Positions 1,550 through 29,047 of a stretch of 64,000 bases of DNA are shown one piece after another. Position numbers and translations under genes: made by a program. The notes under the pieces were generated by a model. That model was not told where the DNA came from. It worked only from the letters and a program-made list of their open reading frames with translations, and made no database searches. The stretch spans positions 207,674-271,673 of the forward strand of contig CBDBHI010000067.1 of the NCBI GenBank assembly GCA_965205595.1, read 5' to 3'. Position 1 is the stretch's first letter. Each line of letters starts with the position of its first letter. Origin of the DNA: Bryobacterales bacterium (GTDB lineage Bacteria > Acidobacteriota > Terriglobia > Bryobacterales > UBA6623).

Positions 1550-3628
1550 ATGAAACTTCATCCAAATTCATCTATTCGCCTTCGTCTCTGCTCGATTGCG
1601 GTAATTGCTCTAGTGATGGCGGCAGTCCTGCCCGCCCAGCCGGCCGCCGACTCGAAAATCGAAAGCGGCCTGCTAACCACTCTTACAGGCAACCCGAGCG
1701 GCTCAACGCCATTTTTTGTTGTGTTTCAAGAGAGTGCGTCGCTTGACGCAGCTTCTCAGGTGCCCGACCGCGAGCAACGCGGCCGAGCAGTGGTGCAGAT
1801 ACTACAGGAAACAGCCAACCGCACGCAGGCGGGCGTACAGGCGATATTGCGCGCGCGTGGTGCGGATTTCACTTCCTACTGGGTGGTCAACTCAATCTAT
1901 GTGCCCAACGGCAATCTTGGTATAGCACGCGCACTGGCGACGCGACCTGAAGTTTCACGGATTGAACCGGAACCGGTTATATCGGTTCCGCCCGTGATCG
2001 TAGAGGAGGCACCCATCGAAGTCCAGTCGATCGAGTGGGGCATTAATAAAATTCGCGCCCCCGAGGTATGGCCCACGACCAAGGGAGCGGGCATAGTTGT
2101 TGCCAATATCGATACTGGCGTGCGCTACACGCACAACGCGGTTGTCGATCAATATCGCGGGAACAATGGCGACGGAACGTTCGACCATTCAGGAAACTGG
2201 AAGGACCCCAGCAGTATTTGTGGCGCGACGCCCTGCGATAACAATAACCACGGCACCCACACGATGGGAACGATGGTTGGCGACGACGACGCTGGCAACC
2301 AGATCGGCGTCGCACCCGAGGCCGAGTGGATCTCGTGTAAAGGTTGTTCCACGAACAGTTGTTCCGGTAGTCACTTGATTACGTGCGGTCAATGGATTCT
2401 CGATCCCAATGAGGATAGTAGCGGCAGCGACCAGCCCGATATCGTCAACAATTCCTGGAGCGGTGGCGGCGGTAACAATTGGTACATGGGAATTGTGGAC
2501 GGTTGGAGAGCGGCCGGCATCTTCCCAGCATTCGCAAATGGCAATAGTGGCCCGAACTGCGGCACAGCCGGTTCGCCTGGTGACTATTTCCAGTCGTTTG
2601 CCTCAGGCGCGACGGACATTGGCGACAACATCGCTAGCTTTTCCTCGCGTGGACCCTCGGCTTTTGGCCCGGTTAAGCCCGACGTCAGCGCACCGGGCGT
2701 GAGCGTGCGGTCGAGTACTGCCAGCGGCGACAGCAGCTACTCGAATTTCAGCGGAACTTCGATGGCGAGCCCACACACCGCCGGCTCGGTGGCCCTGATG
2801 TGGGCGGCCGATCCCGCGCTGCGAGGCGATATCGCCGCCACTGAAGCTCTGCTACGCGGTGCGGCGGTAGACTTGGGGCCCGGCACTTGTGGTGGCACCC
2901 TGGCCCTCAACAACACGTTTGGCGAAGGACGGATTGACGTCAAAGAAGCCGTTGGAGGGGAACCGCCGCCGCCGAACGATCCTCCGGATGTCACGATTTC
3001 CGCGCCAGCGAACGGAACGAACGTAACCTGCCCCGCGACCGTCGAATTCACTGCAATGGCGACCGATACGGAGGACGACGACACTGCCTTAACCGCGAGT
3101 CTGAGTTGGACGGACAATGGAGATCCCCTCGGCTCAGGCGGGAGCGCCTCCAAATTATATTCATGTCTCGATTCGGGATCGCATGTGATCGACGCGAGCG
3201 TCACGGACAGCGGTGGAGCCGGGGGCTCGGACTCGATCACCATTCAGGTCAACAACGATCCGCCAGAAGTCACCATCCTAACCCCGGCCGATGGCTCGAC
3301 GTTTGATTGCGACACTCCAGTCTCGTTTACCGGTGAGGCAACCGATACGGAAGATATCGACCTAACCAGTGCCATCTCGTGGACCGACAACGCTGCGAAC
3401 TTCGGCTCTGGAGGAAGCGCAAGCAAGACGTTTAGCTGCAGCACCGAAACCGGTTCTCGGACAATTCAGTCAACTGCAGTCGACAGTGGTGGTGCTAGTG
3501 GCAACGACACCATTTCAATCACCATCAACGGTGGCGTCTGCGAGCCAAAGCGCGCATCTTGTACCGCCAATAGTGAGTGTTGCTCTAACAAGTGTAAGGG
3601 TAAGGCCGGTAATAAGTCATGTAAATAG
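1550..3628 (+). CDS. Secreted S8 (subtilisin-family) serine peptidase with propeptide, two PKD/Ig-like repeats and a Cys-rich C-terminal tail
   Basis: Catalytic motifs IDTG, HGTHTMG and GTSMASPH; signal peptide; two NDPP(D/E)VTI...ATDTED...SWTDN...GSGGSASK repeats; GAGG SD before ATG 1550. Confidence 0.92.
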   Translation: MKLHPNSSIRLRLCSIAVIALVMAAVLPAQPAADSKIESGLLTTLTGNPSGSTPFFVVFQESASLDAASQVPDREQRGRAVVQILQETANRTQAGVQAILRARGADFTSYWVVNSIYVPNGNLGIARALATRPEVSRIEPEPVISVPPVIVEEAPIEVQSIEWGINKIRAPEVWPTTKGAGIVVANIDTGVRYTHNAVVDQYRGNNGDGTFDHSGNWKDPSSICGATPCDNNNHGTHTMGTMVGDDDAGNQIGVAPEAEWISCKGCSTNSCSGSHLITCGQWILDPNEDSSGSDQPDIVNNSWSGGGGNNWYMGIVDGWRAAGIFPAFANGNSGPNCGTAGSPGDYFQSFASGATDIGDNIASFSSRGPSAFGPVKPDVSAPGVSVRSSTASGDSSYSNFSGTSMASPHTAGSVALMWAADPALRGDIAATEALLRGAAVDLGPGTCGGTLALNNTFGEGRIDVKEAVGGEPPPPNDPPDVTISAPANGTNVTCPATVEFTAMATDTEDDDTALTASLSWTDNGDPLGSGGSASKLYSCLDSGSHVIDASVTDSGGAGGSDSITIQVNNDPPEVTILTPADGSTFDCDTPVSFTGEATDTEDIDLTSAISWTDNAANFGSGGSASKTFSCSTETGSRTIQSTAVDSGGASGNDTISITINGGVCEPKRASCTANSECCSNKCKGKAGNKSCK

Positions 3629-3651
3629 CTCAAGTATCGAGCTGAGCCTCA

Positions 3652-3686
3652 AAAAAGCCAACCGGCTCAACACCGGTTGGCTTTTT
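3652..3686. terminator. Bidirectional intrinsic terminator
   Basis: AAAAAGCCAACCGG-CTCAACA-CCGGTTGGCTTTTT lies between convergent genes, with an A/T tract on each side. Confidence 0.85.
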
Positions 3687-3707
3687 CACTGAATTCAACT
3701 AGCCCTA

Positions 3708-4733
3708 CTATCGCTTTACCGGCACATACTTCTGAAGTCTTCGCGTATACGGCTCACCGCCGAATAGGTTGCCGTCGGCGTCGACAGCAACCCATTCCGC
3801 CCCGTGTCCTCGGTCGACGCGCGGATCGCCCCAGGGGAACAAAACGAACGACTCCACCCAACCGGTCCGCACGTCGCCGATACGAATTCCGTATTCAAAA
3901 CCGGGGTTCTTTTCGTTGTCTGATGTTGAGTCCGCAACGTAGATTTTGCCGTGTTTGTCAAACGTAATTCCGCTGGGCCGGCCGAACTGCCTCCATGTGG
4001 ATAGGTGCTTTCCTTCTTGATCGAAGATCTGGATGCGGGAGTTATCGCGGTCGCCAACGAAGACACGGCCGTCGGAGTCCATTGCGATCGTGTGCGGCTG
4101 CCGCAGTTCGCCCGGCCCGTACCCGGTCTTGCCCCAAGTCTTGATGAACTTTCCGTCTTTCGAGAACTTCACAACGCGATTATTTCCGTCGACCGCGTGA
4201 CCGTCGGTCACGAAAACGTCGCCGTTGGCGGCCACAACCACGTCGCACGGTGCGTTGAAGTGGTCCCGGCCGTCGCCTGCAACACCGGGGGTGCCTAAGG
4301 TCATCAAGACCTCGCCGGTCGGACTAAACTTGATGACCTGATGTCCTCGAGTGCCCGGCGGAGTCCACTCGGGCCTAATGCCGTCGACCACCCAAATATT
4401 GCCATCCGGATCGATATCCATACCATGCGGCCAGATAAACAGCCCACCTCCAAAACTTTCAACGACGTTGCCCTGGGGGTCGAACCTGAGGATCGGATCG
4501 AGATCTGAATCGAGACATTCGCTACCGAACCGAGCGTCTGGGTCACAGCGAACGATGGCCCACACATGGTGGCCGTCGGGGTCGATCTCGACGTCGCCAA
4601 CTCTTCCCATTCGCCGGCCCTCCGGCGGCTTCGCCCAGTCGGCGACTGATCGATAGGGGTTTGGATACGGCTGGGCAAGCACCCCAACCGCGACGAGCAG
4701 GGTTAGTGAAGCTACAACGACAAGCTTGCGCAT
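3708..4733 (-). CDS. NHL-repeat beta-propeller protein (PAL-like), secreted
   Basis: Repeats such as WPHGMDIDPDGNIWVVD, FNAPCDVVVAANGDVFVTDG and QPHTIAMDSDGRVFVGDR; signal peptide. Confidence 0.85.
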   Translation of the reverse strand: MRKLVVVASLTLLVAVGVLAQPYPNPYRSVADWAKPPEGRRMGRVGDVEIDPDGHHVWAIVRCDPDARFGSECLDSDLDPILRFDPQGNVVESFGGGLFIWPHGMDIDPDGNIWVVDGIRPEWTPPGTRGHQVIKFSPTGEVLMTLGTPGVAGDGRDHFNAPCDVVVAANGDVFVTDGHAVDGNNRVVKFSKDGKFIKTWGKTGYGPGELRQPHTIAMDSDGRVFVGDRDNSRIQIFDQEGKHLSTWRQFGRPSGITFDKHGKIYVADSTSDNEKNPGFEYGIRIGDVRTGWVESFVLFPWGDPRVDRGHGAEWVAVDADGNLFGGEPYTRRLQKYVPVKR

Positions 4734-9313: not shown

Positions 9314-11733
9314 AAAGCCGCAAAACTAGATGTATCTGGATCTCGTCGCTGCTGCTTTCGGCAGGATTGAGTTCAGCTTTCGGCCAGGATGCGAACAGCG
9401 GTCGGGTAGAGGGTACTGTGGTCGAAGGCGATCTGAACCGCGCGGTCGTTGGAGCGGTTGTTCGTGTCGACGATAGCGATTTGGAGAGCGTGTCGAACGC
9501 CGTCGGCCGCTTCGTGATCGATGCCATGGCCGCGGGAGTCGCGACGATTGTGGTGGATGCTCCGGGCTATCTCGAACTGCGCGTCGGCGACATTCGGGTG
9601 GAGGCGGGGCAGACGCTGGAACTAGATGTCAAGTTGGAACCGACGCCGAACATCCTGCAACGGATTCAGGTGACCGCAACCAAGTCGGCGCTCAGCATTG
9701 GCGAGGTTCCCGCCCAAACGGAGATCGTCGAGAGAGAGATTATGGACCTGCGTGGGGATCAAGAGTTGACCCAAGCGATCTCGCACGTGCCTGGCGTGAC
9801 CGTCAGTACGCAAGCAGGTTCGTTCGAGTCGGTGTCGCTTCGCGGTTTACCTCGCGATGGCAACGAGTTCACCAGTACGCTCTTGTTGATCGACGGCGTG
9901 CCTCAGACCGATTCTCGAAACAGCGCTCGTGTGGTCAATCTGCCGATCAACAACACGAGTACGGTCGAGGTGGTTCGAGGCCCGAATTCCGCTCTCTATG
10001 GCCGAACAGCCGTTGGCGGTGTGATTAACGTACGTACGGCTGATCCGACGCCAAAGCATCAGTTTCGAGTCGATTTTTCCGCGGGCGAGTTCGGTTTCTT
10101 CAAGGGCATCGCTCGGGCGTCGGGCCCGATTCAGCGCAGGGGCGGCTACTACGCGTCGATCGCCCGTGAACACAATGAGGGGTATTGGACGGGGCCGTTT
10201 GACTTCAACGTTGATGAGACGGCCGCGTTTGGCAAGTTGACATTCGTTCCCGACAGCCAGTCGTTTGGCAGCATTAGCGCCAACGTTGTGCGGTCGGACA
10301 ATGCCACGCCGACGAACGTTCCGATCATCGGCGGTCGACTGCTCAGCGACATCGATCCGAGGTTCGACCGCCGCACGAGTCTGAACGTCCCTGGCACGAA
10401 CTATCACCAGGAGGAAACCCGCTTCACGTTGAACTACACCCGCCAACTAGCCGAGCGGGCGCGAATTGTCGAGGTGTTCGGCTACAGGCCGATCCAATAC
10501 AAGTTCGTCGACGACGGCGACGTAATCGGCGGACCGTTCGACCTTGAGGCGACCACGCTCTCGATGTTCCCGTTCGAGTTGCAGACCGATGAAGACATTT
10601 ATTATCAGGAATTGCGATTCGAGGCCGAACCAGAGCTAGGACCCGTGCGGAACTCCTTTATCTTCGGAGTGTCGTACGACAAAACGACCGGCTTCGCAGC
10701 CGGCAACTTGATCTTTACCGACCCTGACCTGTTCGGCTGGACGCTCAACTATCTCAACCCGGTGATCCCACCCAGCGAGGACTGGCAGTTTTTCCGATTT
10801 GGCGGGAATGACTACCGCCTCGGCATCACCGGCGTCTTCGCGCAATATATGATTGCGCCGCTCAGACGCTGGGTCATGACTGTCGGCGGGCGTTACGACC
10901 GCATGGCGCTCGACAACACCCTGACATTCACCGACGGTAGCCCCATCGTGGAGGATTCGTTTGACGCGTTCAGCCCGAAGGTGAGCTCGACATTCAAGCT
11001 GTTCGGCGTAGAAGATGGCGCGGGACCGACGCTGAATATCTACGGGACCTACTCGCAGGCGTTTTTGCCGCCTCGCCGGCCAAGTCAGCTTCGGCCCAGT
11101 AACGAGCAACTCGAGTTGATCCCCGAAGACGTCGACAACTACGAGGGTGGTGTGAAAGCTAGCGCGCTCGGCGGGGCGCTGACGTTCGAAGCGGGCTACT
11201 TCTGGATGAAACGCGACGGCATCATCACGACGGTGCGGCAAGGCCCGTTCTTCCTGCCCACCAACGCGGGCGAGCACGAGTACAAGGGATTCGAATCGAC
11301 GATTCGCTGGCGCGCAAATTCAAAGTTCATGGCGTACTTCAACGCCGCTGCTTACAAGAATCGTTTCGGCGACTTTATCATCGAGCAAGAGGGCGGCGAC
11401 ATCGTTCTGACCGGCAACCGATTGCCGATCTCACCGGATCAGGTTTTCAACAGCGGCACGGTCTTCTCGCCAGTTCGGTCAGTCGATATCACCGCTGACA
11501 TCAAACATGTCGGCTCCGTGCAGGTTGATCAGCGAAACACGTTCGAATTGAACGCTTACACGCTGGTCGATGCGTCGGTCTCCTGGCGGCGCGGGCCGTT
11601 TCGCGTTACGCTCGCGGCGCAGAACATCTTTGACAAAGAGTATTTCTGGAACGGCGCGGTCTCCTCAGGCGATTCGGCCGATATCGGCCGGCCGCGTCAG
11701 GTCCTCGTTTCCACGTCGTTTGTGTTTCGCTAG
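9298..11733 (+). CDS. TonB-dependent receptor with N-terminal carboxypeptidase-regulatory-like domain
   Basis: Plug motifs (LRGL...LLLIDGVP; VEVVRGPNSALYG..AVGGVIN) and a C-terminal NIFDKEY...GRPRQV..S.SFVF beta-strand. Confidence 0.92.
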   Translation: MAALTKSRKTRCIWISSLLLSAGLSSAFGQDANSGRVEGTVVEGDLNRAVVGAVVRVDDSDLESVSNAVGRFVIDAMAAGVATIVVDAPGYLELRVGDIRVEAGQTLELDVKLEPTPNILQRIQVTATKSALSIGEVPAQTEIVEREIMDLRGDQELTQAISHVPGVTVSTQAGSFESVSLRGLPRDGNEFTSTLLLIDGVPQTDSRNSARVVNLPINNTSTVEVVRGPNSALYGRTAVGGVINVRTADPTPKHQFRVDFSAGEFGFFKGIARASGPIQRRGGYYASIAREHNEGYWTGPFDFNVDETAAFGKLTFVPDSQSFGSISANVVRSDNATPTNVPIIGGRLLSDIDPRFDRRTSLNVPGTNYHQEETRFTLNYTRQLAERARIVEVFGYRPIQYKFVDDGDVIGGPFDLEATTLSMFPFELQTDEDIYYQELRFEAEPELGPVRNSFIFGVSYDKTTGFAAGNLIFTDPDLFGWTLNYLNPVIPPSEDWQFFRFGGNDYRLGITGVFAQYMIAPLRRWVMTVGGRYDRMALDNTLTFTDGSPIVEDSFDAFSPKVSSTFKLFGVEDGAGPTLNIYGTYSQAFLPPRRPSQLRPSNEQLELIPEDVDNYEGGVKASALGGALTFEAGYFWMKRDGIITTVRQGPFFLPTNAGEHEYKGFESTIRWRANSKFMAYFNAAAYKNRFGDFIIEQEGGDIVLTGNRLPISPDQVFNSGTVFSPVRSVDITADIKHVGSVQVDQRNTFELNAYTLVDASVSWRRGPFRVTLAAQNIFDKEYFWNGAVSSGDSADIGRPRQVLVSTSFVFR

Positions 11734-11937
11734 GTCTCACTAAACGTAATGGAAGTCCCACCGTTCGCGGTTCGGAAATCGCTGGTCTATACCTACCTGT
11801 GTGTACTTAAAAGCGGGTAGGAACCTTCCCACGCCTCTGGCGCTAAGCCGGATTACTTGCGAGAAACGCCCATGTCGCCAATGCGGCGGCTCGCAGCTCC
11901 TGCCGGACTGGCGATAAGGTCCTAGGAGTCTGTCCCG

Positions 11938-12151
11938 CAGAACGCGGAGCTCCTTACGTGCTCACCTAATTCGATCACCTGGCCGCATTATGAATGCCGC
12001 CCATTGGCCGGATTTGGCAGGGTTTCTGTGAAATTTCGAGCCTCCTTGCAGGGCTTTCCGCACCCTGCAGGTATAGTGTAAGGCCCGTGTGTCCGGTTTC
12101 CGGCCGACCGAATCGCTAGGTTGTTGATTTCAAAGGCAAAAGAAATTTCAA
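11938..12151 (+). repeat. Non-coding repeat, copy 1, left part (5' exon of the intron)
   Basis: About 90% identical by eye over the core to 24283-24428 and to the reverse complement of 28402-28548. Confidence 0.9.
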
Positions 12152-12431
12152 GAGCGCCGGGATAAACCGGCATGTTGTTGGGAATGAAAGAGTCCTACAA
12201 GGAAGGAGTTAGCGAGCCACCTTGGCCCCGAGTTTTGCGGACGGCGTCGCGAGGCGACGGTCGAAGCGTAAACAGGGGTGCCGGCGGGCCGGGCTATTGA
12301 GCTTCGAAAATTCTTGTCTCAGGGCGCCGACCACGTTTGAAAGATGGGAAGGCAACACGGGCGTTCGCGTGATTCGCGAGTGGACGTCCGGCCCTGCGTA
12401 GTCTGAGAACCTGAGCACGTCGAGAAACAAC

Positions 12432-13991
12432 ATGCACGAGAACCGGGAGACCTCTGGAGTGTCTCGAGCTGATCGAGACCGGTCCGAGAAGGCGCTAAGC
12501 CGAACGGCGGGCATGTACGCTCCAGAGGAGTCTGACTGCGCCGTAGTACCTGTGAACCGACCGAACAAAGAGAGGCAACTCTTGGCGGAGGCCGGGGAGG
12601 GAAGGGTGCAGACCAAGGAGAACAGCGAAGGGTCCTACACGAGCCCGACACGGAGCGGGAAAAGAGTGTCCCAAGGACTTGGAGGTGTGCGTCGAACAGC
12701 CAAAGAGAGGAGGCAGGAAAGGTTCAGCGCTTTGCTCCACCATCTGAACGTGGATCAACTACGGGAAAGCTTTTACTCGCTACAGAGAAAAGCCGCGCCT
12801 GGAGTCGACGGCGTGACGTGGCGGGAGTACGAGACCGGGCTTGAGGATCGACTGGTCGATCTGCACAGCCGGGTGCATCGGGGTAAGTATCGGGCGCAGC
12901 CCTCGCGGAGAGTCTATATCGAGAAGGCCGACGGGCGGCAACGTCCGTTGGGCATTGCGGCGCTGGAGGACAAGATCGTCCAACAGGCCGTAGTGACGAT
13001 CCTCAATCAAATCTATGAGGTCGACTTCAAGGGCTTTTCGTACGGGTTTCGACCGGGACGCGGTCCGCATCAGGCGCTCGATGCGCTGTCGGTGGGGATC
13101 GAATCCAAGCGCGTGAACTGGGTGTTGGACTGTGATGTGCGGTCGTTCTTCGACACGGTGTCGCATGAATGGCTGGACAAGTTCATCCGGCACCGCGTGG
13201 CCGATTCGAGGGTACTTCGTCTGATCCAGAAATGGCTGAAGGCGGGCATATCCGAGGAGGGCGAATGGTTGGAGACCAAGGTAGGGACTCCGCAAGGGGC
13301 GGTGATTTCACCGCTATTAGCGAATATCTATCTTCATTATGTTTTCGATTTGTGGGTGGAAGCCTGGCGCAAGAAAGTGGCAACGGGCGACGTGATCGTC
13401 GTTCGTTACGCCGACGACATTGTGGTGGGCTTTGAGCACCGGGTGGAAGCGGAACGGTTTCGGAGAGAGCTTCAAGAACGTTTCGCCAAGTTCGGTCTGG
13501 AACTTCATGCGGGCAAGACGCGGTTGATCGAGTTTGGGCGGTTCGCCGCCCAGAACCGGACGAGACGGGGCGAGGGAAAGCCGGCGACCTTCGATTTCTT
13601 GGGCTTCACGCATTATTGTGGGAAGCGCAGGAAGACGGGCACGTTTACCGTCTGGCGCAAGACGGTTAAGAGGCGGATGGTGGCGAAGCTGCATCAGTTG
13701 AAGGCAGTTCTGCGTCGCCGGATGCACGAGCCGACGGCGCTGGTCGGGGCCTGGCTGAAGCGGGTCGTCGAGGGCTTTTACCAATACCACGCGGTTCCGG
13801 GCAACTCGGATCGGCTGGCGTTGTTCCAATACCGGCTGCGCATGCTGTGGCGACGCGTGTTGTTTCGTCGCAGTCAGAAGGGACGCAAGTCCTGGAAGAG
13901 ACTCAACCGACTGTTGGACCGCTGGATTCCTCGCCCTCGCGTTCTGCATCCTTATCCGCCGGAGCGTTTCTACGCCAATCATCCGAGGTAG
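12432..13991 (+). CDS. ltrA: Group II intron reverse transcriptase/maturase (RT + X, no En domain)
   Basis: RPLGI..LEDKIVQ, SYGFRPGR, GTPQG..ISPLLANIYLH, RYADD and FDFLGF motifs. The ORF ends immediately before DV with no HNH domain. Confidence 0.96.
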   Translation: MHENRETSGVSRADRDRSEKALSRTAGMYAPEESDCAVVPVNRPNKERQLLAEAGEGRVQTKENSEGSYTSPTRSGKRVSQGLGGVRRTAKERRQERFSALLHHLNVDQLRESFYSLQRKAAPGVDGVTWREYETGLEDRLVDLHSRVHRGKYRAQPSRRVYIEKADGRQRPLGIAALEDKIVQQAVVTILNQIYEVDFKGFSYGFRPGRGPHQALDALSVGIESKRVNWVLDCDVRSFFDTVSHEWLDKFIRHRVADSRVLRLIQKWLKAGISEEGEWLETKVGTPQGAVISPLLANIYLHYVFDLWVEAWRKKVATGDVIVVRYADDIVVGFEHRVEAERFRRELQERFAKFGLELHAGKTRLIEFGRFAAQNRTRRGEGKPATFDFLGFTHYCGKRRKTGTFTVWRKTVKRRMVAKLHQLKAVLRRRMHEPTALVGAWLKRVVEGFYQYHAVPGNSDRLALFQYRLRMLWRRVLFRRSQKGRKSWKRLNRLLDRWIPRPRVLHPYPPERFYANHPR

Positions 13992-14178
13992 GAGCCCAGT
14001 GCATTAGCAGTGCACGCTGGGATCTGTGCGGGGGGTGCCGGGCGACCGGCATCCTGAGAACGGCGGAGCGAAACTAGACTATAGAGCGGCGAATCGAAGC
14101 TGCTTTTGGGCGGAGTAAAAGTAGACCGTCCGAGTGGTCCAGCGAACATTCCTGTGGTGTTTGTGGGACACGAGAGGG

Positions 14179-15678
14179 ATGTATCGCGTGGAGCTATACG
14201 CTCAAGTACGGCGCAGTGTCTTTGTCGAAGGGCTCAGTGAGCGCGAGGCCGCCAAACGGTTTGGCCTGGCGCGAGGGACGGTGCGCAAGATGTTGCGCTA
14301 CGCCACTCCGCCGGGCTATCGGCGGCGCCAACCAGCGCAGAGGCCGAAGCTGGATCCCTTCACCGGAATCGTCGATCAGATCCTCATCGACGATCAGGAA
14401 CGTCCGAAGAAACAACGCCACACCGCAAAACGCATCTTCGACCGCTTGCGCGACGAGTACGATTTCACCGGCGGTTACACGATTGTCAAGGACTATGTTC
14501 GCGACAAGAAGCTCGGCGGGCAAGAGATGTTCGTGCCGCTGGTGCATCCGGCGGGCGATGCCCAGGCCGACTGCGGTGAAGCTCTGGTGGTCATTGACGG
14601 CGTACAGCGCAAGGCGCACTACTTGGTGGTCGATCTGCCGCCTAGCGATGACGCTTTCGTAAAAGCTTTCCCGGCCGCGACGACGGAAGCGTTTTGCGAG
14701 GGGCACAACGCAGCGTTTCGGTACTTCGGCGGCGTGCCACGCAGCATCCTCTACGACAACACGACCTTGGCGCTGGCGAGGATTCTGGGCGACGGCAGGC
14801 GCAAGCGGACCAGGGTGTTCAGTGAACTGCAGTCGCACTATTTATTCTCCGATCGTTTCGGGCGTCCGGGCAAAGGCAACGACAAGGGAAAGGTGGAAGG
14901 ACTGGTCGGTTATGCCCGGCGGAACTTCATGGTGCCGGCGCCAAGGTTTCCAAGCTGGGAAGCGTTCAACGAGCAGCTCGAAGCGCAGTGCCTCAACAAT
15001 CGTAAGCGGCGCTTGCGGCGGCACACCGAAACGATTGAGGAACGTTTCAAGCGTGACCGCCAAGCGTTGTTGCCCTTGCCGCCCACGCCCTATGACGCCT
15101 GCGACAAACGCACCACGCGGGTGCCGTCGCTGTCATTGGTGCGCTATCGCGCCAACGACTACGCGGTGCCCACACGCTACGGACATCGCCAGGTGTTGCT
15201 GAAAGGCTACGTCGATGAAATCGTGATCTGTTGTGGCAGCGAAGAGATCGCGCGCCACCGGCGCAGTTACGAACGCGAAGAGTTGATCTTCGATCCGCTG
15301 CATTACCTAGCACTGCTGGAACGCAAGACCAACGCGCTCGATCAAGCGGCCCCGTTGGCGGGCTGGGAGCTGCCCGAACAGTTCCCGTGCTTGAGACGTT
15401 TGCTCGAGGCACGGTTGGGAAAGCCAGGCAAGCGCGAGTACGTGCAGGTATTGCGATGACTGGAGGACTTCCGATTCGAGCACGTTGCCGCGGCGCTGCG
15501 CCAAGCCTGCGAGTTGGGAGCGATTGGCTTGGATGCAGTCAGGCACTTAGTGCTGTGCCGCATCGAGCAACGGCCGCCGCGCTTGGACTTGACGAAGTAT
15601 CCGCACCTGCCGGCAGCCCAGGTGGAGCAAACCTCCGCTGCGGACTATTTGGCACTGCCGGCACAAGGAGGGGGGTAA
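14179..15678 (+). pseudogene. istA: IS21 transposase IstA with an in-frame TGA at 15457-15459
   Basis: DDE transposase motifs. The IstA-like C-terminus (AIGLDAVRHLVLCRIEQRPPRLDL..YP.LP) continues in frame after the TGA to a TAA that overlaps the istB ATG (TAATG). Confidence 0.85.
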
Positions 15679-16439
15679 TGGCGAGGTCGAAACTTCTGCT
15701 CGAAGCGCATTTGAAAGCGTTGCGGCTGCCAACCTTCCTGCGCGAGTACGACAAACTGGCGCGGCAATGCGCCGCCGAGAGCTTGGATTCGAGGAGCTTC
15801 CTGCAACAACTCTGCGAGCTGGAACTGCTCGACCGTGAACAGCGGGCCACCGAGCGCCGCAGCAAGGCCGCGAAGTTTCCCGTGACCAAGAGTCTGGACA
15901 CTTTCGACTTCCCGTCCTTGCCGGCGTTGAACAAGAAGCTGGTGCTGGAACTGGCGCGCTGTGAGTTTATCGACCGCCGCGAAAACGTGCCGGCACTGGG
16001 TAATTCCGGCACGGGCAAAACGCACATCGGCTTGGCGTTGGGACTGGCGGCTTGTCAGCGCGGCTATCGAACACGCTTCACAACAGCGGCGGCACTGGTC
16101 AATGAGCTGCTCGAAGCCCGAGATGAACGGCGCTTGCTGCGATGTCAAAAGCAGTTGGCCAAGCAGGATCTGCTGATCGTCGATGAACTGGGCTACGTGC
16201 CGCTATCGAAGACCGGAGCGGAGTTATTGTTCGAAGTGTTTTCCCAGCGCTACGAACAGGGCTCGACGCTGGTCACCTCGAATCTGCCGTTTAACGAATG
16301 GACGGAGGTCTTCGGCTCCGAGCGGCTGACCGGCGCCCTGCTCGATCGCCTCACGCACCACGTTCATATTCTAGAGCTGAACGGCGAAAGCTTCCGTCTG
16401 ATCCAGAGCAAGAAGAAGCGGGCTCACTCTTTGGGCTGA
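15678..16439 (+). CDS. istB: IS21 helper AAA+ ATPase IstB
   Basis: Walker A GNSGTGKT, Walker B LLIVDELG, and TSNL.F.EW...ALLDRL.HH. Confidence 0.93.
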   Translation: MARSKLLLEAHLKALRLPTFLREYDKLARQCAAESLDSRSFLQQLCELELLDREQRATERRSKAAKFPVTKSLDTFDFPSLPALNKKLVLELARCEFIDRRENVPALGNSGTGKTHIGLALGLAACQRGYRTRFTTAAALVNELLEARDERRLLRCQKQLAKQDLLIVDELGYVPLSKTGAELLFEVFSQRYEQGSTLVTSNLPFNEWTEVFGSERLTGALLDRLTHHVHILELNGESFRLIQSKKKRAHSLG

Positions 16440-16624
16440 CCCACCGGCCACTCGCCCGGTTTTCGTGGGACGGCCTCCACTACGCCTGGGCCGCCCTAAA
16501 GGGCGACCGCAGGCTCCGTTCCAGCCGTCCCACGAAAACCGCTACCCCTTCACCAACTGGTCTACTTTTGCTCCGCCGAAGTGGTCCAAATTTACTCCGC
16601 CCTTGACAGCATCCCTACCGCGAT

Positions 16625-16671
16625 AATCGCGGTACGACCGTTTGGGCGGGTTCCGTCTTGGCCGGCGCGAG
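16625..16671 (+). repeat. Non-coding repeat, copy 1, right part (3' exon)
   Basis: AATCGCGGTACGACCGTTTGGGCGGGTT..CTTGGCCG matches the continuation of copy 3 (reverse complement). Confidence 0.85.
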
Positions 16672-16684
16672 CATGCGGCTTCAT

Positions 16685-18625
16685 TTATTCCGTGGACTCG
16701 TAAGTCAGGCCGAAGCCATATTCGAAAAGTGGCTCGGCTGAGTCGCTTGGCAAATCCTCCAACTGCGCGTCAACGGCTTCCATCGATGAAGGCAATTCGA
16801 ACGGCAGCTTACCAGTCGGGTTGAACTTGCCGAACACGACATCAAGCAGCGCTTCATCACTAGCGCCAAAGGTGCCCAACACGGCGGCGGCATTCTTCGC
16901 GATCTCTGGGATCACGGCGGGTCGATCCAAGTGAATGGAGACTACGGTCGGCTTGGAGCGCAATATTTCCAGAAGACGCTTTCGCTCGTCCCCTCTAAAC
17001 GCCAGGCTGCCGAGATGGATACGTCCGAAAAAGCCCGGTCGGGTTTCGAATGCGGTTTGTAAGCGAAGGACGGCAACGTCGGCCTGCTGCAACTGATCGA
17101 CGACAGTCCCGTATTGCGCCGCGACCTGCGGATTCACGTTCTCGACATAGATCTTGGCGCCGTGCTGCAGCGGCAGCGCCTTGGCGTCATTGGCTGCTTG
17201 ATTTTTCAGCAGTACTATCGATTTCCTCTGGGCCGTATCGGCCTCCGCCTGGAACGGCTCACTGCCAACAATCTCCTTCGCTCGGTCGGGATCGACGTAG
17301 GGATTCTCAAACACTCCCAGGCTGAACTTATCTCGCAACAAGCGCCTAGCCGACTCGTCGATGCGTTCCTCTGTGACGCTGCCGCCCGTCACCAGAGTGA
17401 CGATGTGTTCTGGATTGGAATCCCCGCCAAACTGGTCGACTCCGGCATCAATTGCTTTCGCGTAGCGCTCTTCAATCGAGAGCTCATTGACGCCCCAAGG
17501 CATCAGAGTTAAAATCCCCCAGTCGCTACACACCACGCCGTCAAATCCGAGCTGCTCCCGCAACATTCCCGTGATAATTTCTTTGTTGTATGCCATGGCG
17601 ACGTTCTCGCTCGTGACGTCGGTCGGAATGCCGTAGTAGGGCATGATCTGTGCAGCGCCGGCGGCAATGGCGGCCTTGAACGGGATCAGGTGATAGTCAA
17701 AGTTGTCGCCTGGATACACCTGCTCTTGGCCGAAATCGTTGTGCGGGTCGAGGCCGTCGAGTTGTGGACCGCCACCAGGAAAGTGCTTCGTCATCGTGAT
17801 CACGCTCGTCGGACCGAGGCCACCCTCACCCTGAAATCCAACGATGTAGGCGGTGGTCATTTCAGCGGAAAGCTCCGCGTTCTCGCCGAAAGTACCGACG
17901 ATGCGGCCCCAGCGCGGCTCGGTGGCGAGGTCCGCCATGGGATGCAACGCTGTGCGAATGCCCACCGCGCGGTACTCTTCGGACGCGATCTCGCCGAAGC
18001 GCCTTACCAACTTCGCGTCAGCCGTCGCCGCCAGGCCGATCTGTTCCGGCCATTGCGAGAAAGCCCCCGCCCGAACGCTCGTGGCGTCGGGGTCGTGCCG
18101 GAATCCGTTGCGCGGATCAGAACTTATCGTTAACGGAATCCCTAGCCGAGCCGTCTCCGCCATCTCCTGGAGGTTGTTGTTCCAAGTCGCGATGACTTCA
18201 GGCCGTTCTGAGGTCCGCACGAGCACGTGATTGATCTGTTTTTTGAGAATGACCTCGCTCGTCCCCGGTTGCGGGAATCGAGGCATGCCTGGAGGACGCT
18301 TATCTTCCTCGCCGGGAACCGGTTCGAATAGGGTCCCGTTCTCCCCCATGCTCAAGGCTGGGTGCGCCATCAGGCCGGCTTTCGCTTCAATCGTCATTTG
18401 GTCAAGCAGGTCAACGACGCGCTCCTCGACCGGCAGACGCCAATCTTCATAGGGGTCAAGGCTGGCGTTCTTGTTGTGGTCTTTGAACTCATACCCCCCC
18501 ACGGTCAGAACGTCGAGACTTCGCGCGCTGAGCTGCGGCTGCGTGAACTCGGGACCGCCCGACGAACAGCCTGCAAGCATGATCATCAGTGTGGCTACGG
18601 AGAACTGAAACGGTTTGTAATTCAT
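16685..18625 (-). CDS. Glycoside hydrolase family 3 (beta-glucosidase-like), lipoprotein
   Basis: SSDPR, EPRWGR, TKHFPG, CSDWG and SIVLLKN motifs; the likely start is ATG 18625 with a LAGC lipobox. Confidence 0.92.
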   Translation of the reverse strand: MNYKPFQFSVATLMIMLAGCSSGGPEFTQPQLSARSLDVLTVGGYEFKDHNKNASLDPYEDWRLPVEERVVDLLDQMTIEAKAGLMAHPALSMGENGTLFEPVPGEEDKRPPGMPRFPQPGTSEVILKKQINHVLVRTSERPEVIATWNNNLQEMAETARLGIPLTISSDPRNGFRHDPDATSVRAGAFSQWPEQIGLAATADAKLVRRFGEIASEEYRAVGIRTALHPMADLATEPRWGRIVGTFGENAELSAEMTTAYIVGFQGEGGLGPTSVITMTKHFPGGGPQLDGLDPHNDFGQEQVYPGDNFDYHLIPFKAAIAAGAAQIMPYYGIPTDVTSENVAMAYNKEIITGMLREQLGFDGVVCSDWGILTLMPWGVNELSIEERYAKAIDAGVDQFGGDSNPEHIVTLVTGGSVTEERIDESARRLLRDKFSLGVFENPYVDPDRAKEIVGSEPFQAEADTAQRKSIVLLKNQAANDAKALPLQHGAKIYVENVNPQVAAQYGTVVDQLQQADVAVLRLQTAFETRPGFFGRIHLGSLAFRGDERKRLLEILRSKPTVVSIHLDRPAVIPEIAKNAAAVLGTFGASDEALLDVVFGKFNPTGKLPFELPSSMEAVDAQLEDLPSDSAEPLFEYGFGLTYESTE

Positions 18626-18650
18626 TAGAAATTTCTCGGTCGCAGTGACA

Positions 18651-20084
18651 TCACTTTGGCCCGCGGCTCGGTGGGGCCGGTGGTGGCATTCGGCGAGGGT
18701 TCGGATTCTTTCCCTTGAGGTACTGGTTCTCGACCGCTTTGACCGTTTGCCTATGCGCTTCGACAATCTGCTCGATACGCTTGAGCACGTCGGGATGATC
18801 TTTCGCGATGTCTAACCGCTCGCTCACGTCGTTGAGTAGGTGATAAAGCAGCGGCGGGTCGTGCGCTTCTTCCGGTGTGCGAAAGGCATAGCCGTTCCGT
18901 GTGATGAAATGCGCCTTGTACGGCCCCGATCGCGCCGCAAAGATTTTGCGATCGCGGTAGTAGATCATGTGGTCGCGAGGGCTTTCAGCGGTTCCCAGTA
19001 GAGCCCCTGAAAGATCGAAGCCATCGATCGCGCGGTCAGCGGGGATCTTAGCCCCGGCAAGCCCGGCTATCGTTGGCAGCAAGTCCAGCGTCGAACCCAT
19101 CTCGCGCACAGTTCGCGATGGGATCGTTCCCGGCCACCAGAAGATCGCGGGCACTCGCATGCCCCCTTCCCAGGTACTCTGTTTGCCGCCTCTGAGTGGT
19201 CCCGCCGAACCACCATGCGTTTGCATCAGCAACCACGGGCCGTTGTCTGACGTGAAGACGACCATCGTTTTCTCCGCGAGCCCCGTCGTTCGTAGCGTCT
19301 CGAGGACCTGGCTTACCGACCAGTCGACTTCCTCGACAACATCTCCGTACCTGCCCCCGACACTTCGATCCGCGAAGGCTTCAGAGCGGAAGAGCGGAGT
19401 GTGAGGCATGCTGTGAGCCAAGTAGAGGAAGAACGGCTCGTCTTTGTTGTTCTCAATGAAACGGATTGCTTCTTCCGTGTAGCGCCGTGTGATCGTCGTC
19501 TGGTCCGCAGGCCTTTCGACAATCTCCTCATTCCGCATCAGCGGGACGTTCCAGTATTCGACCTTGGGGTCGAAGTAAGCCTTGATGAACTGTGGCGAGC
19601 CGGGCACGCCGTCCATATCGTTCGAATAGGGAATGCCGAAATAGCTATCGAAGCCCTGGTTCGTCGGAAGAAATTGAGGCAGGTGGCCGAGGTGCCATTT
19701 GCCGACGATTCCAGTTGCGTACCCTAGGTCTTTAAGCATTTCGGCGATCGTAATTTCGCTCTCTGGCAAGCCGCCCTCGTGATAGGGAAAGAAGACTCCG
19801 CCCGACAGACCACTCCGCATCGGCAGCCTTCCGGTCAACAGCGCCGCGCGGCTCGGCGTGCAAATGGCCGCGCCAACGTAGAAATTGGTCCACTTCTGGC
19901 CTTCGGCGGCCATGCGATCTAGGTGTGGCGTCGCGATCGTAGGGCTGCCATACCCACTAAGGTCCCCATAGCCCAAGTCGTCAGCAAAGATGACGACGAA
20001 ATTCGGCCGATCTTGCCCGGCCAGCGTCAGTACCGTCGAGAGTAGGAGACACACACGGGCACAACTCCCAATCGAATAAGTCAT
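18651..20084 (-). CDS. Cys-type sulfatase (arylsulfatase A-like)
   Basis: ADDLGYGD, CTPSRAALLTGR, GKWHLG and TSDNGP motifs. Confidence 0.93.
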   Translation of the reverse strand: MTYSIGSCARVCLLLSTVLTLAGQDRPNFVVIFADDLGYGDLSGYGSPTIATPHLDRMAAEGQKWTNFYVGAAICTPSRAALLTGRLPMRSGLSGGVFFPYHEGGLPESEITIAEMLKDLGYATGIVGKWHLGHLPQFLPTNQGFDSYFGIPYSNDMDGVPGSPQFIKAYFDPKVEYWNVPLMRNEEIVERPADQTTITRRYTEEAIRFIENNKDEPFFLYLAHSMPHTPLFRSEAFADRSVGGRYGDVVEEVDWSVSQVLETLRTTGLAEKTMVVFTSDNGPWLLMQTHGGSAGPLRGGKQSTWEGGMRVPAIFWWPGTIPSRTVREMGSTLDLLPTIAGLAGAKIPADRAIDGFDLSGALLGTAESPRDHMIYYRDRKIFAARSGPYKAHFITRNGYAFRTPEEAHDPPLLYHLLNDVSERLDIAKDHPDVLKRIEQIVEAHRQTVKAVENQYLKGKNPNPRRMPPPAPPSRGPK

Positions 20085-24112: not shown

Positions 24113-24447
24113 AAATGTCCGGAAATGTCCGGATTTGTCCGGTTTTCTCTGAAAATCTCTGGTCGGGGGCGATTTGCCATACTTAACAATGGTATTATGT
24201 CAAACATAACAAAGCAGAATGGGGAACTCCTCGCGTGTCCATACAAGCCAATCTCGCGGCCGCATCATGAATGCCTCGCTGTGGCCGGATTTGGCAGGGT
24301 TTTTGTGAAATTTCGAGCCTACTTGCAGGGCATTCCGCATCCTCCAGGTATAGTGTAAGGCCCGTGTGTCCGGTTTCCGGCTGACCGTATCGCTAGGTTG
24401 CTGATTTCAAAGGCAAAAGAAATTTCGAAATCGCAGGACGACCGTTT
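24113..24447 (+). repeat. Non-coding repeat, copy 2 (empty intron target at 24428|24429)
   Basis: Aligns with copy 1 and with reverse-complemented copy 3; begins with a 10-mer tandem (AAATGTCCGG)x2 + ATTTGTCCGG. Confidence 0.9.
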
Positions 24448-24458
24448 TACGTTTGTTA

Positions 24459-26206
24459 AGGGCTCCGGAAGGTGTGAAGAAATTCGGTTTTTGGCCGTAG
24501 GGCCGCGTCATTTTCGGGGGTGGTGGCTTTTTTGAGTTGATACTCGAGGTTGCCCGAAACTCGCTGAACCGTTCGCATGCCTCCGGCTGAGCAGTTTTGG
24601 CGGCTCTGAACGCTTTGATTGGCCCTTTGGGGGCGTTCCGGGGGTCGATTAGCCGGTCGGGATCAGTTCCGGTGCCAGTTTGAACAGGCGTTGCAGGTTG
24701 AACGCCGGCGCCGCCCAGTGAGCCTCGCAACTGACCTTCGCCAGACCCCTCGTTGAGAAGCGTCGCAGCTTGAATTTCGTCTTGATCCAGGCATTCGGAA
24801 ACTCAATTAACGGCGCTCGTTGCTTGTAAATCGTTTGCGCTTTCTCCGTCTCCATCTTCGCGTCAAAGCGCCGCACCGCCTCGTCATAATCTTGAATCGA
24901 CACGCTCCGTCCAGCGCTTTTTAGCTTTAAATCCGGACAGCACAACTGTTTCACCGGACACTCTCGACAGTCCTCCACGCGCGCCCGATAGATGCGGATC
25001 GTGCGCCCCTTCGGATGTTGCGTTGCTTTGCGCGACAGGCGCTTCGCTTGCGGGCAAACCAGCATGTCCGCAGCCTCGTTCCGAACGAACTTAGCGGCAA
25101 AGTAGTCTTCGTGACGCCGCGTCCCCAGACCCGTCGGCTTGGCACTTCTGCCCGTCCAACTTCCGTAGTAATCGATGCCGCGCTCGTCCCTGTCCACTAC
25201 CGACGCATGATTCGTGTAACCCCCGTCAGCAAGGGCTTCGGTGGGATATGCTCCCTGTCTCTCTTTGAGCCGGTCGATCGCCGCAAGCAGTTGCTCAGAG
25301 TCCTGCGGATCGTTGACAACCTGGACGTCGGCGATCAATCCATGCTTGCCGTCGGCTGTGATTTGTACGTTGTAGGCGGGCGCCACAGCGTTGTCGCTGG
25401 TCCACATAAACCGCGCCTCGGGATCGCTCGTTGATGCTTGTGGTTGCTTACTTTTGTTGTCCTTCCTGGCGGCCCGCAACTGCTCGATTTCATCGAGTGC
25501 TTCTGGCAACTTCTCTTCTCTGTCTTGGGCCGCGCGTTGTCGGGCTTGCTGCTGCTTTTTGGTGGTTTGCTCTTCGGCTTCTTGGCGCTCAAGTTCGTCC
25601 AAATGCTCGCGCGCCAACTTGAGATATTCCTCAATCTTGTCTTTTTGGCGAAAGCTTTTCTTGTTGACATCGGCGCGAATCTTGGTGCCGTCAACGGCCA
25701 CTCGTTGGAGAGTAACTAAGCGCTTTTTCAGCATCAGTGCAAGCACGTCCTCGAAGAGTTCGCGCAGCGCCTGGCCGTGGCCGACGCGGAAATCCGACAA
25801 CGTGTGGTGGTTGATCGGATGCAGCCCGGTGAGCCAACGCAAGGCGGGCTCGTAGTCCATTTGGCGCTCAATTTCGCGCGCCGAATGGAGGCCTTTTGTG
25901 AAGGCGTAGAGCCAGACGGAAGTGAGCACTTGGGGCGAGTGGGACGGGCGTCCGGCGACGCCCTCGACGGCGCGAACGTCGCGCTCGAAGCGGCTCAAAT
26001 CGAGCGACGAGATGAGGCGCCAGATGCGCCGGGCGACATGGTCGTCAGCGATCAGGCGCTCGACGTCGAGCGACAGCAGAAGGTGTTGGGACCGGTTGCT
26101 GGGGAGGTGGCGCGGGGAACCCTGCTCCGACATAACTTATTATACCAAATAAGTTGGCGAAACAGAGTATCGGCGACGCCTATTTTTTCACAGCTTCCGG
26201 AGCCCT
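24459..26206 (-). mobile_element. IS1182-family insertion sequence
   Basis: Terminal IRs AGGGCTCCGGAAGGTGTGAAGAAA and AGGGCTCCGGAAGCTGTGAAAAAA. No clear target duplication was seen. Confidence 0.88.
24649..26133 (-). CDS. IS1182 DDE transposase
   Basis: LI..DH.AR, HHTLSDFR, AVDGTKI.A, AYNVQ, LADGGY and Y..R...IE..(N/F) motifs. Confidence 0.92.
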   Translation of the reverse strand: MSEQGSPRHLPSNRSQHLLLSLDVERLIADDHVARRIWRLISSLDLSRFERDVRAVEGVAGRPSHSPQVLTSVWLYAFTKGLHSAREIERQMDYEPALRWLTGLHPINHHTLSDFRVGHGQALRELFEDVLALMLKKRLVTLQRVAVDGTKIRADVNKKSFRQKDKIEEYLKLAREHLDELERQEAEEQTTKKQQQARQRAAQDREEKLPEALDEIEQLRAARKDNKSKQPQASTSDPEARFMWTSDNAVAPAYNVQITADGKHGLIADVQVVNDPQDSEQLLAAIDRLKERQGAYPTEALADGGYTNHASVVDRDERGIDYYGSWTGRSAKPTGLGTRRHEDYFAAKFVRNEAADMLVCPQAKRLSRKATQHPKGRTIRIYRARVEDCRECPVKQLCCPDLKLKSAGRSVSIQDYDEAVRRFDAKMETEKAQTIYKQRAPLIEFPNAWIKTKFKLRRFSTRGLAKVSCEAHWAAPAFNLQRLFKLAPELIPTG

Positions 26207-28037: not shown

Positions 28038-28293
28038 GATTGAGGAGATCAGGGACACTCAAGGAGATCCAAGGAGATCAGGGGGAGATCAGGGACACTC
28101 ACGTAACCTCGCACTGGCATGCACCCCTAAGCTGAGACAGCTTAAAAGCGGGACAGTTGCCGTTCGCTGAAAAAGTATAGCCTTTTTCGCGAACGTGCCG
28201 CACACTTGAAAACGGCCGGGAAAGCGGAGGCGGGAAACCCGTGACGGAGCCCAATTAAGGGGCGATCGGGGACACTCACGTAACCCCGCATTG
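28038..28293 (+). repeat. GGAGATC/GGGACACTCACGTAACC short direct-repeat cluster
   Basis: GGAGATCAGGGACACTC at 28044 and 28084; GATC(A/G)GGGACACTCACGTAACC.CGCA.TG at 28087 and 28264. Confidence 0.75.
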
Positions 28294-28354
28294 CCTTTAT
28301 GAATCAGCAGCTTCCAGCGATTTCAATGTTCATAAAAAGAGAGGGCGATTGAGT

Positions 28355-28717
28355 CTCGCCACGGCCAAGGCTGAACCCGCCCAAACGGCCGTCCCGCGAT
28401 TTTGAAATTTATTTTGCCTTTGGAATCAGCAACCTAGCGATACGGTCGGCCGAAAACCGGACACACGGGCCTTACACTATATCTGGAGGTAGCGGAAAGC
28501 CCTGCAAGGAGGCTCGAAATTTCACAGAAACCCTGCCAAATCCGGCCAATGGGCGGCATTCACGACAGGGCCTGGGGATCGGCTTGCATGAGCGCGCGAG
28601 GAGTTCCTCGTTCTGATTTGTGGAGTATGACGGAATTCAAATGGCAAATCTGGCGGGTCGCCCCGGCCGGCGATTTTTAGAGAAACCCTGCCCAATCCGG
28701 CCCAATCCGGACATTTC
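28355..28717 (-). repeat. Non-coding repeat, copy 3, inverted (empty intron target at 28401|28402)
   Basis: The reverse complement aligns with copies 1 and 2, including the uninterrupted TTTCAA|AATCGC site. Confidence 0.9.
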
Positions 28718-28971
28718 GTTTTGACGGCCAAGCTGCGCCCGAGCGGCTTTGCCAAAAAGCCGGTGACACGGGTCTTATCCTGGAACCGCCGACCGCGACG
28801 AAGGGATTGAGCAACCACGGCGGCTAGAACGCAAATACCCATGAGCAGCCCGAAAAGTTTAGTTTCGCCGAATTGCTCTAAAGATGGATAGTATCCTCGA
28901 CCCGGTGGCTGCCCCAGCGGCTGCCGCCGAAAAGGAGCGTCGACAAGATGATCGAGAAAACAATGAAAGGA

Positions 28972-29047
<76 letters not shown>

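Follow-up and report, generated by a model that had tools for sequence, protein, structure and literature searches.

A compact group II intron without an endonuclease that very probably homes by base pairing into a dispersed non-coding repeat of a Bryobacterales bacterium

A 64,000-nt stretch of DNA from a Bryobacterales bacterium (hereafter the window) carries a group II intron that is inserted in one copy of a dispersed repeat, and two further copies of the same repeat lie uninterrupted in its vicinity. A first-pass annotation of this DNA had noticed that two candidate exon-binding sites (EBS1 and EBS2) of the intron are complementary to the repeat, and had proposed that the intron is programmed to target this family of repeats and could spread through it across the genome. 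This raises the question of whether the complementarity indeed reflects target recognition, and, if so, by what route the intron came to occupy the repeat. We find it very probable that this is an IIB-type intron with an intron-encoded protein (IEP) that lacks an endonuclease, that it was guided by its EBS motifs and retrohomed independently into many copies of the repeat, and that the window copy was later disrupted by an IS21-family element. The coordinates of the features discussed below are collected in Table 1.

Table 1. Features of the intron-bearing repeat copy and of the two empty repeat copies, in positions of the window
Feature	Position	Strand	Basis or remark
Repeat copy 1, 5' part (5' exon)	11937-12151	+	Repeat search; alignment with copies 2 and 3 and with L081-L091
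IBS2 AAGAA (exon -12 to -8)	12140-12144	+	Complementary to 12311-12315
IBS1 TTTCAA (exon -6 to -1)	12146-12151	+	Complementary to 12337-12342
Group II intron	12152-16624	+	Rfam RF02005; split by the IS21-family element
Intron 5' segment (domains I-V and 5' part of domain VI)	12152-14054	+	Starts GAGCG
EBS2 UUCUU	12311-12315	+	13-nt 5' bulge after CGAAAA, Rfam consensus structure
EBS1 UUGAAA	12337-12342	+	Terminal loop of hairpin 12326-12353
EBS3 U	12404	+	Pairs with IBS3 (A16625, +1 of the 3' exon)
IEP ORF (RT and maturase)	12432-13991	+	TIGR04416, 348 bits (cut-off 300)
Domain V	13992-14024	+	5-nt terminal loop UAGCA; 2-nt bulge; fold of reconstituted domains V-VI
Domain VI, 5' strand, GCGA loop and part of 3' strand	14028-14054	+	Fold
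IS21-family element	14055-16608	+	istA and istB: NF033546, 271 bits; NF038214, 280 bits
Intron 3' end CUACCGCGAU	16615-16624	+	Identical 3' ends in L081-L091
Repeat copy 1, 3' part (3' exon)	16625-16671	+	Repeat search; alignment
Repeat copy 2, empty	24113-24447	+	Site between 24428 and 24429; IBS1 TTTCGA
Repeat copy 3, empty, longest in the window	28261-28748	-	Site between 28402 and 28401; IBS2 AATAA

The 5' boundary of the intron was set from the empty repeat copies together with the intact intron copies found elsewhere (loci L081-L091): the intron begins GAGCGCCGGG, directly after the 5' exon end at 12151, and the RF02005 model (group-II-D1D4-6) matches over its whole length at 12189-12411 (176.6 bits; model positions 1-225 of 225). 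As copies 2 and 3 run without interruption through the junction (...AAATTTC(A or G)A followed by AATCGC...) and the repeat of copy 1 resumes (AATCGCGG...) only at 16625, the insert comprises everything in between. The actual 3' splice site, between 16624 and 16625, therefore lies about 2.5 kb past the apparent intron end. The 5' end GAGCG differs from the consensus GUGYG; among 72 related copies about half begin with GAGCG and the rest with GTGCG, the former being common to many multi-copy relatives; GAGCG is a variant of this consensus.

The IS21-family element, with the ends TGAGAACGGCGGAG... and ...CCCTTGACA, interrupts the 3' strand of domain VI. It is flanked by a 6-bp target duplication, GCATCC (14049-14054 and 16609-16614), and is missing from the sister copies of the intron, which are intact at 1913 nt. 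Upon its removal domains V and VI fold canonically, the bulged branch-point A (16617) lying 8 nt ahead of the 3' splice site, and the reconstituted 80-nt stretch aligns end to end with intact related introns. The RF00029 model remains below its gathering score for this intron lineage, including the intact copies L083 and L087. Because the element splits domain VI, the window copy of the intron is probably dead, i.e. unable to splice or to move. The istA gene contains an in-frame TGA (15457-15459), after which the frame continues to the normal IstA C-terminus; given this codon, the IS21 copy may itself be defective.

From its first ATG the IEP is 519 aa long, with M28 at 12513 being the likely real start (giving 492 aa), as judged from homologues of 492 aa and from tblastn matches that begin at residues 27-28. 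A Pfam search recovered RVT_1 only and no endonuclease domain (D/En or HNH) at E <= 0.01; the C-terminus extends about 120 aa past the RT domain. Outside of the 492-aa ORF the ribozyme amounts to about 435 nt. A 5-nt loop in domain V and a ribozyme of 450-700 nt without the IEP have been described as traits of class E/F introns (PMC3753933), and the present intron resembles them in its 5-nt domain V loop and its small ribozyme. It is compact and class E/F-like in its RNA features, and the domain V loop would fit class F as well as the class E suggested in the first-pass annotation. In the supplement of PMC3552965, which gives names and sizes, So.us.I2 from an acidobacterium is assigned to class F.

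The first point to settle is whether the candidate exon-binding sites are genuine. AT-rich motifs of 5-6 nt can match by chance, and the minimum-energy fold of the single sequence pairs part of the EBS1 loop internally, so the complementarity seen in the window might be coincidental and the true exon-binding sites might lie elsewhere in domain I. All the strings quoted in the first-pass annotation are present where it had placed them, with a single A (12145) between the two exon motifs. The hairpin GCC-GA-CCAC...AUGG-GAA-GGC that bears EBS1 corresponds to a consensus hairpin of RF02005 with a variable loop, and EBS2 falls in a poorly conserved bulge on the 5' strand of the stem that encloses this hairpin in the same consensus. 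We gathered 80 loci with homologous introns from Acidobacteriota (IEP 67-86% identical), aligned their 5' parts with 14-40 nt of the 5' exon, and ran the covariation tests on 40 distinct related lineages. Changes in the EBS1 loop from one lineage to another are mirrored by the last 6-7 nt of the exon: for the six EBS1-IBS1 pairs 89.4% of the cells are paired, and all six pairs have changed on both sides. Scored jointly, the EBS1 and EBS2 pairs reach a covariation score of 0.61, compared with 0.20 +/- 0.02 for shuffled data (0 of 500 shuffles as high), and sliding the 3' partners by 1-3 columns lowers this score to 0.33 or less and the pairing of the structure from 71% to 60% or less. This covariation rejects a coincidental match, for which, with both motifs sitting in variable elements (a loop and a bulge) of the Rfam consensus and with pairing reduced when the partners are slid, there is next to no probability left. 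The assignment of TTGAAA as EBS1 and of TTCTT as EBS2 in the first-pass annotation thus holds on both the RF02005 structure and the covariation across the 40 lineages.

For EBS2 the segment that follows CGAAAA covaries with exon positions -8 to -13 in most lineages. A count in a fixed register gives 45% pairing only, which is an undercount because IBS1 and IBS2 are not equally spaced in all lineages (+/-1 nt); in a register-free permutation test the longest run of complementarity to the intron's own exon is on average 4.78 against 3.60 +/- 0.14, a value reached by 0 of 5000 permutations. Given that EBS2 pairing is not evident in the subgroup of relatives L055-L080, and that class E/F introns reportedly self-splice without EBS2 (PMC3753933), it is the covariation on which a role for EBS2 in this intron rests. 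The column of 12404 forms a Watson-Crick pair with the first nucleotide of the 3' exon in 35 of the 40 lineages (G with C, U with A, A with U). A delta-delta' pairing beside EBS1 was considered and rejected, since the nucleotide 5' of EBS1 does not covary with +1, whereas 12404 does. With EBS3 thus located at 12404 and covarying with +1, exon recognition is of the IIB type, which the first-pass annotation had assumed.

A lookup of the exact IEP and its one-residue variants in public assemblies (several ENA assemblies) recovered intact 1913-nt copies of the intron at 11 distinct genomic loci. All 11 are copies of the repeat that are filled at the same position, in agreement with the proposal that the intron is programmed for this family. 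The insertion point is constant (...AAGAAATTTCAA/AATCGC..., or in fuller context ...GGCAAAAGAAATTTCAA/AATCGCG..., the slash marking the site), with a partial exception in L099, a very diverged repeat copy with the IBS2 AAAAT and a perfect IBS1. The spread through the repeat that had been envisaged is thus seen in the 11 loci of the public assemblies, but the window copy is broken by the IS21-family element, and any further spread must come from the intact sister copies.

The empty sites indicate what the intron has left unfilled. Copy 2 reads AAGAAATTTCGA/AATCGC at 24417-24434 (+) and copy 3 reads AATAAATTTCAA/AATCGC at 28413-28396 (-), and within the window the 18-mer target with up to three mismatches occurs three times against 0.05 expected. 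As had been pointed out, the G at -2 of copy 2 leaves one G-U pair in IBS1, and the T at -10 of copy 3 leaves one mismatch in IBS2 beside a perfect IBS1; the two nearby empty targets are therefore real, but each is mismatched and hence suboptimal. A third empty copy, 300 nt upstream of the filled one in L097, has two IBS1 mismatches, and a diverged empty copy in another organism has one. A perfect match to EBS1 and EBS2 is seen at 10 of 11 filled sites versus none of three empty sites in this species (none of four when the other organism is included), with a hand-computed hypergeometric p of about 0.01 for the relation of occupancy to match that applies to the sampled sites and not to a full genome census. 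Judged from their sequences, the empty copies of the window are the poorer targets, the perfect sites in the sample being already occupied.

The relative ages of intron and repeat bear on how the intron entered these sites. The 12 copies compared (that of the window and L081-L091) show no more than 3 differences in 1913 nt (at least 99.84% identity), amid repeat flanks that are 60-99% identical (mean about 83%), and loci with identical introns are polymorphic in their flanks at -17, -31 and +7 to +9. Near-identical introns amid diverged flanks mean that the intron is much younger than the repeat copies and that it entered them independently, without co-conversion. This pattern indicates RNA-based retrohoming, for which it would be expected, and not gene conversion or co-duplication. 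Spread at the level of DNA, whether repeats exchanged the intron through homologous recombination or gene conversion or a repeat was duplicated with the intron already in it, would nevertheless find 150-490 nt of flanking homology in the repeat. Moreover, 7 of the 12 compared copies have a common 146-nt 5' flank that is 98-99% identical, which could reflect a young repeat subfamily or some copying of DNA, and the window itself points to recombination between two intron-bearing loci. Against such a route stand the contrast in identity between introns and flanks, the absence of co-conversion tracts in the compared copies (with differences as near as -17 and +7 beside identical introns), the filling of truncated or very diverged repeats (L085, L099) at the exact site, and an occupancy that follows the 12-nt IBS match. 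Hence, we regard DNA-level spread as highly unlikely to account for the distribution.

A further alternative reverses the relationship and takes the repeat to be a by-product of intron mobility, such as a reverse-transcribed unspliced precursor with its exon flanks. The repeat copies do vary in their 5' and 3' extents, and the 5' flanks of the filled copies are more uniform than their 3' flanks, as such an origin might predict. It is, however, at odds with the empty copies that have an uninterrupted junction, with the occurrence of an 80%-identical repeat without the intron in another organism, and with flanks that are far more diverged than the introns; its probability is accordingly minute.

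Under independent retrohoming, the intron RNA would recognize the target DNA by pairing EBS1 with -6 to -1, EBS2 with -12 to -8 and EBS3 with the A at +1, i.e. a 12+1-nt target inside a dispersed non-coding repeat. The RNA would then reverse-splice into the DNA, and the IEP would make the cDNA, with priming presumably from replication intermediates because the IEP has no endonuclease. The insertion of the IS21-family element in domain VI of the window copy would have come later. A replication-linked strand bias has been reported for endonuclease-less introns. On the ENA contig ctg125365 (L082-L086, L094 and L097) five introns lie in reverse orientation at 2.59-3.21 Mb and two in forward orientation at 1.26-1.74 Mb, a pattern that would fit such a bias; GC skew as a proxy for the direction of replication was too noisy on the short loci.

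The flanks of the window intron may also record a rearrangement. Its left side (9432-14054, with a TonB-dependent receptor) matches L087/L094 at 99.85%, and its right side (16609-19551, with GH3 and sulfatase genes) matches L086 at 99.86%. These left- and right-flank loci are separate in other assemblies, each with an intact intron, so that either two intron copies have recombined at the window locus or the assembly is chimeric at the intron.

The first-pass annotation had held that homologous introns in unrelated targets would speak against its proposal. The closest copies are all in the repeat; the more distant relatives (the IEPs 67-86% identical) do occupy unrelated targets, but each of these is matched by the intron's own EBS, and a change of EBS along with the target supports the mechanism instead of refuting it. 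Six genomes harbor multiple copies of a single relative, and beyond -15 the flanks of these copies are unrelated to one another. Two of the relatives are twintrons, in which an RF02003 (D1D4-4) intron sits about 30-33 nt inside the 5' end of an RF02005 intron (L002, about 1747-3751; L045, about 854-2854), and L006, L001 and L063 have insertions or tandem copies within the intron.

In terms of known systems, the behavior seen here is that of homing-site recognition by IIB-type introns without an endonuclease, of which this intron is a further example. The closest analog is RmInt1 of Sinorhizobium meliloti, which resides in ISRm2011-2 (PMC1802570, PMC5894124). Both introns have IIB-type EBS1, EBS2 and EBS3 and an IEP without D/En, both reach a high copy number via a site that is repeated in the genome, and both have copies that were inactivated by other insertions or by fragmentation. 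They differ in that RmInt1 has a class D IEP and a target in the transposase gene of an insertion sequence, whereas the present intron has class E/F RNA traits and a target in a non-coding repeat without a transposase. The class E/F introns Cl.be.I2, Pe.th.I2, Ge.ur.I1 and So.us.I2 (PMC3753933, PMC3552965) are likewise compact and IIB-like with a 5-nt domain V loop, have EBS1 and EBS2 in domain Id and an RT-X IEP without En, and reside in putative non-coding DNA; among them So.us.I2, which was found in a related acidobacterium, has a similar size (1943 nt). The present intron differs in starting with GAGCG instead of GUGYG, and no repeat-specific homing is described for class E/F introns in these two papers.

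Class C (IIC) introns, which insert after terminators or attC sites (PMC4424553, PMC1702495), likewise exploit a recurrent and harmless target. They recognize a DNA stem-loop together with short EBS1 and EBS3 pairings and have no EBS2, whereas the present intron uses a pairing of 6+5+1 nt. In the filled and empty copies of the window no strong hairpin abuts the site on its upstream side; among the copies scanned, copy 3 alone has a terminator-like hairpin with a U-run, located about 36 nt downstream of the site. The class C strategy was therefore rejected, EBS2 being present and covarying and no hairpin directly preceding the site. Of the two analogies offered in the first-pass annotation, the one with RmInt1 in ISRm2011-2 is apt, while the strategy of the IIC-attC introns differs. 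Dispersed intergenic repeats also serve as a safe landing pad for ISPpu9 and ISPpu10 of Pseudomonas putida, which target REP elements (PMC1525189); in this organism two of nine group II intron copies are associated with REP (PMC1525189). ISPpu9 and ISPpu10 are DNA transposons that read the palindromic structure of REP, whereas the present intron would rely on RNA-DNA pairing and is in the repeat at 11 of 11 loci.

The locus offers a natural example of how a group II intron without an endonuclease may multiply without harm to its host, and its occupancy obeys base-pairing rules, perfect sites being filled and mismatched ones empty. The roughly 40 lineages with differing EBS/IBS pairs constitute a series of natural retargetings of a compact class E/F-type intron, which could help to define targeting rules for this little-studied group, including whether EBS2 has a role in mobility despite its dispensability for self-splicing. 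In this genome the intron copies themselves probably take part in recombination, and they also receive insertions of other elements.

A potentially more interesting question is the nature of the repeat itself. The three window copies belong to a repeat of 220-490 nt; across the family it reaches at most about 490 nt, its 5' and 3' extents vary, and long copies contain an internal duplication of about 135 nt. The copies are intergenic and their orientation is not fixed. No conserved ORF, transposase or terminal inverted repeats were found in the repeat, and an Rfam search at a permissive threshold gave matches at chance level only. The possibility that the repeat derives from the neighboring rve-type IS was rejected, as there is no similarity between them. 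About 90 nt upstream of the site there is a conserved TTGCAG...TATAGT region; a scan with the sigma-70 consensus did not yield a promoter in the repeat, because the spacing of TTGCAG and TATAGT is 20 nt. In the diverged copy from metagenomes, one long-range stem of the repeat has undergone a compensatory change. RNAalifold on nine repeat copies gave no covariation support (covariation term +0.84), the copies being too similar for this program to test the structure.

Neither BLASTN nor an nhmmer profile recovered the repeat in about 700 kb of related Acidobacteriota loci (80 loci), and a scan of metagenomes recovered a single diverged repeat locus in two samples, which is 80% identical, lacks the intron and belongs to another organism. 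One might speculate that the repeat encodes a small structured RNA in many copies or is a non-autonomous mobile element, and that the intron uses its promoter and restores its RNA by splicing, but we consider this unlikely. Were it true, the TTGCAG...TATAGT region, the long-range stem and the terminator-like hairpin would belong to the repeat's own transcription signals, and the intron would be specialized on the repeat as an expression platform, in a partnership of two elements comparable to that of the IStrons.

Other mobile elements were also encountered in or next to repeat copies. The similarity of copy 2 to the repeat ends at +19, where it adjoins a gene for an IS5/IS1182-type DDE transposase (DUF772, DDE_Tnp_1_6; window 24649-26133, -), and a rve-type IS lies inside another repeat copy in L087; several mobile elements seem to land in the repeat frequently. 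In L083, about 20 nt after the 3' splice site (4653-4668), a stretch ...TGTCCCTACCGCGAC... resembles the last 13 nt of a related intron (...CCCTACCGCGAC) and may be the remnant of a 5'-truncated intron insertion. In L099, at about 4115-4135, the branch-point A is changed to C (CCCTCCCGCGAT), and a gene for an IS256-type transposase lies closely downstream. The motif GTGAGTGTCCC(C/T)GATCTCC recurs downstream of copy 3 (28077-28116, 28254-28293 and 28040-28076, in the sense of the - strand) and many copies of the repeat bear it at their 3' edge as well; possibly it forms a small repeat family of its own. Finally, the - strand also carries a tRNA gene (74.5 bits; 28976-29047) that precedes copy 3 by about 230 nt.
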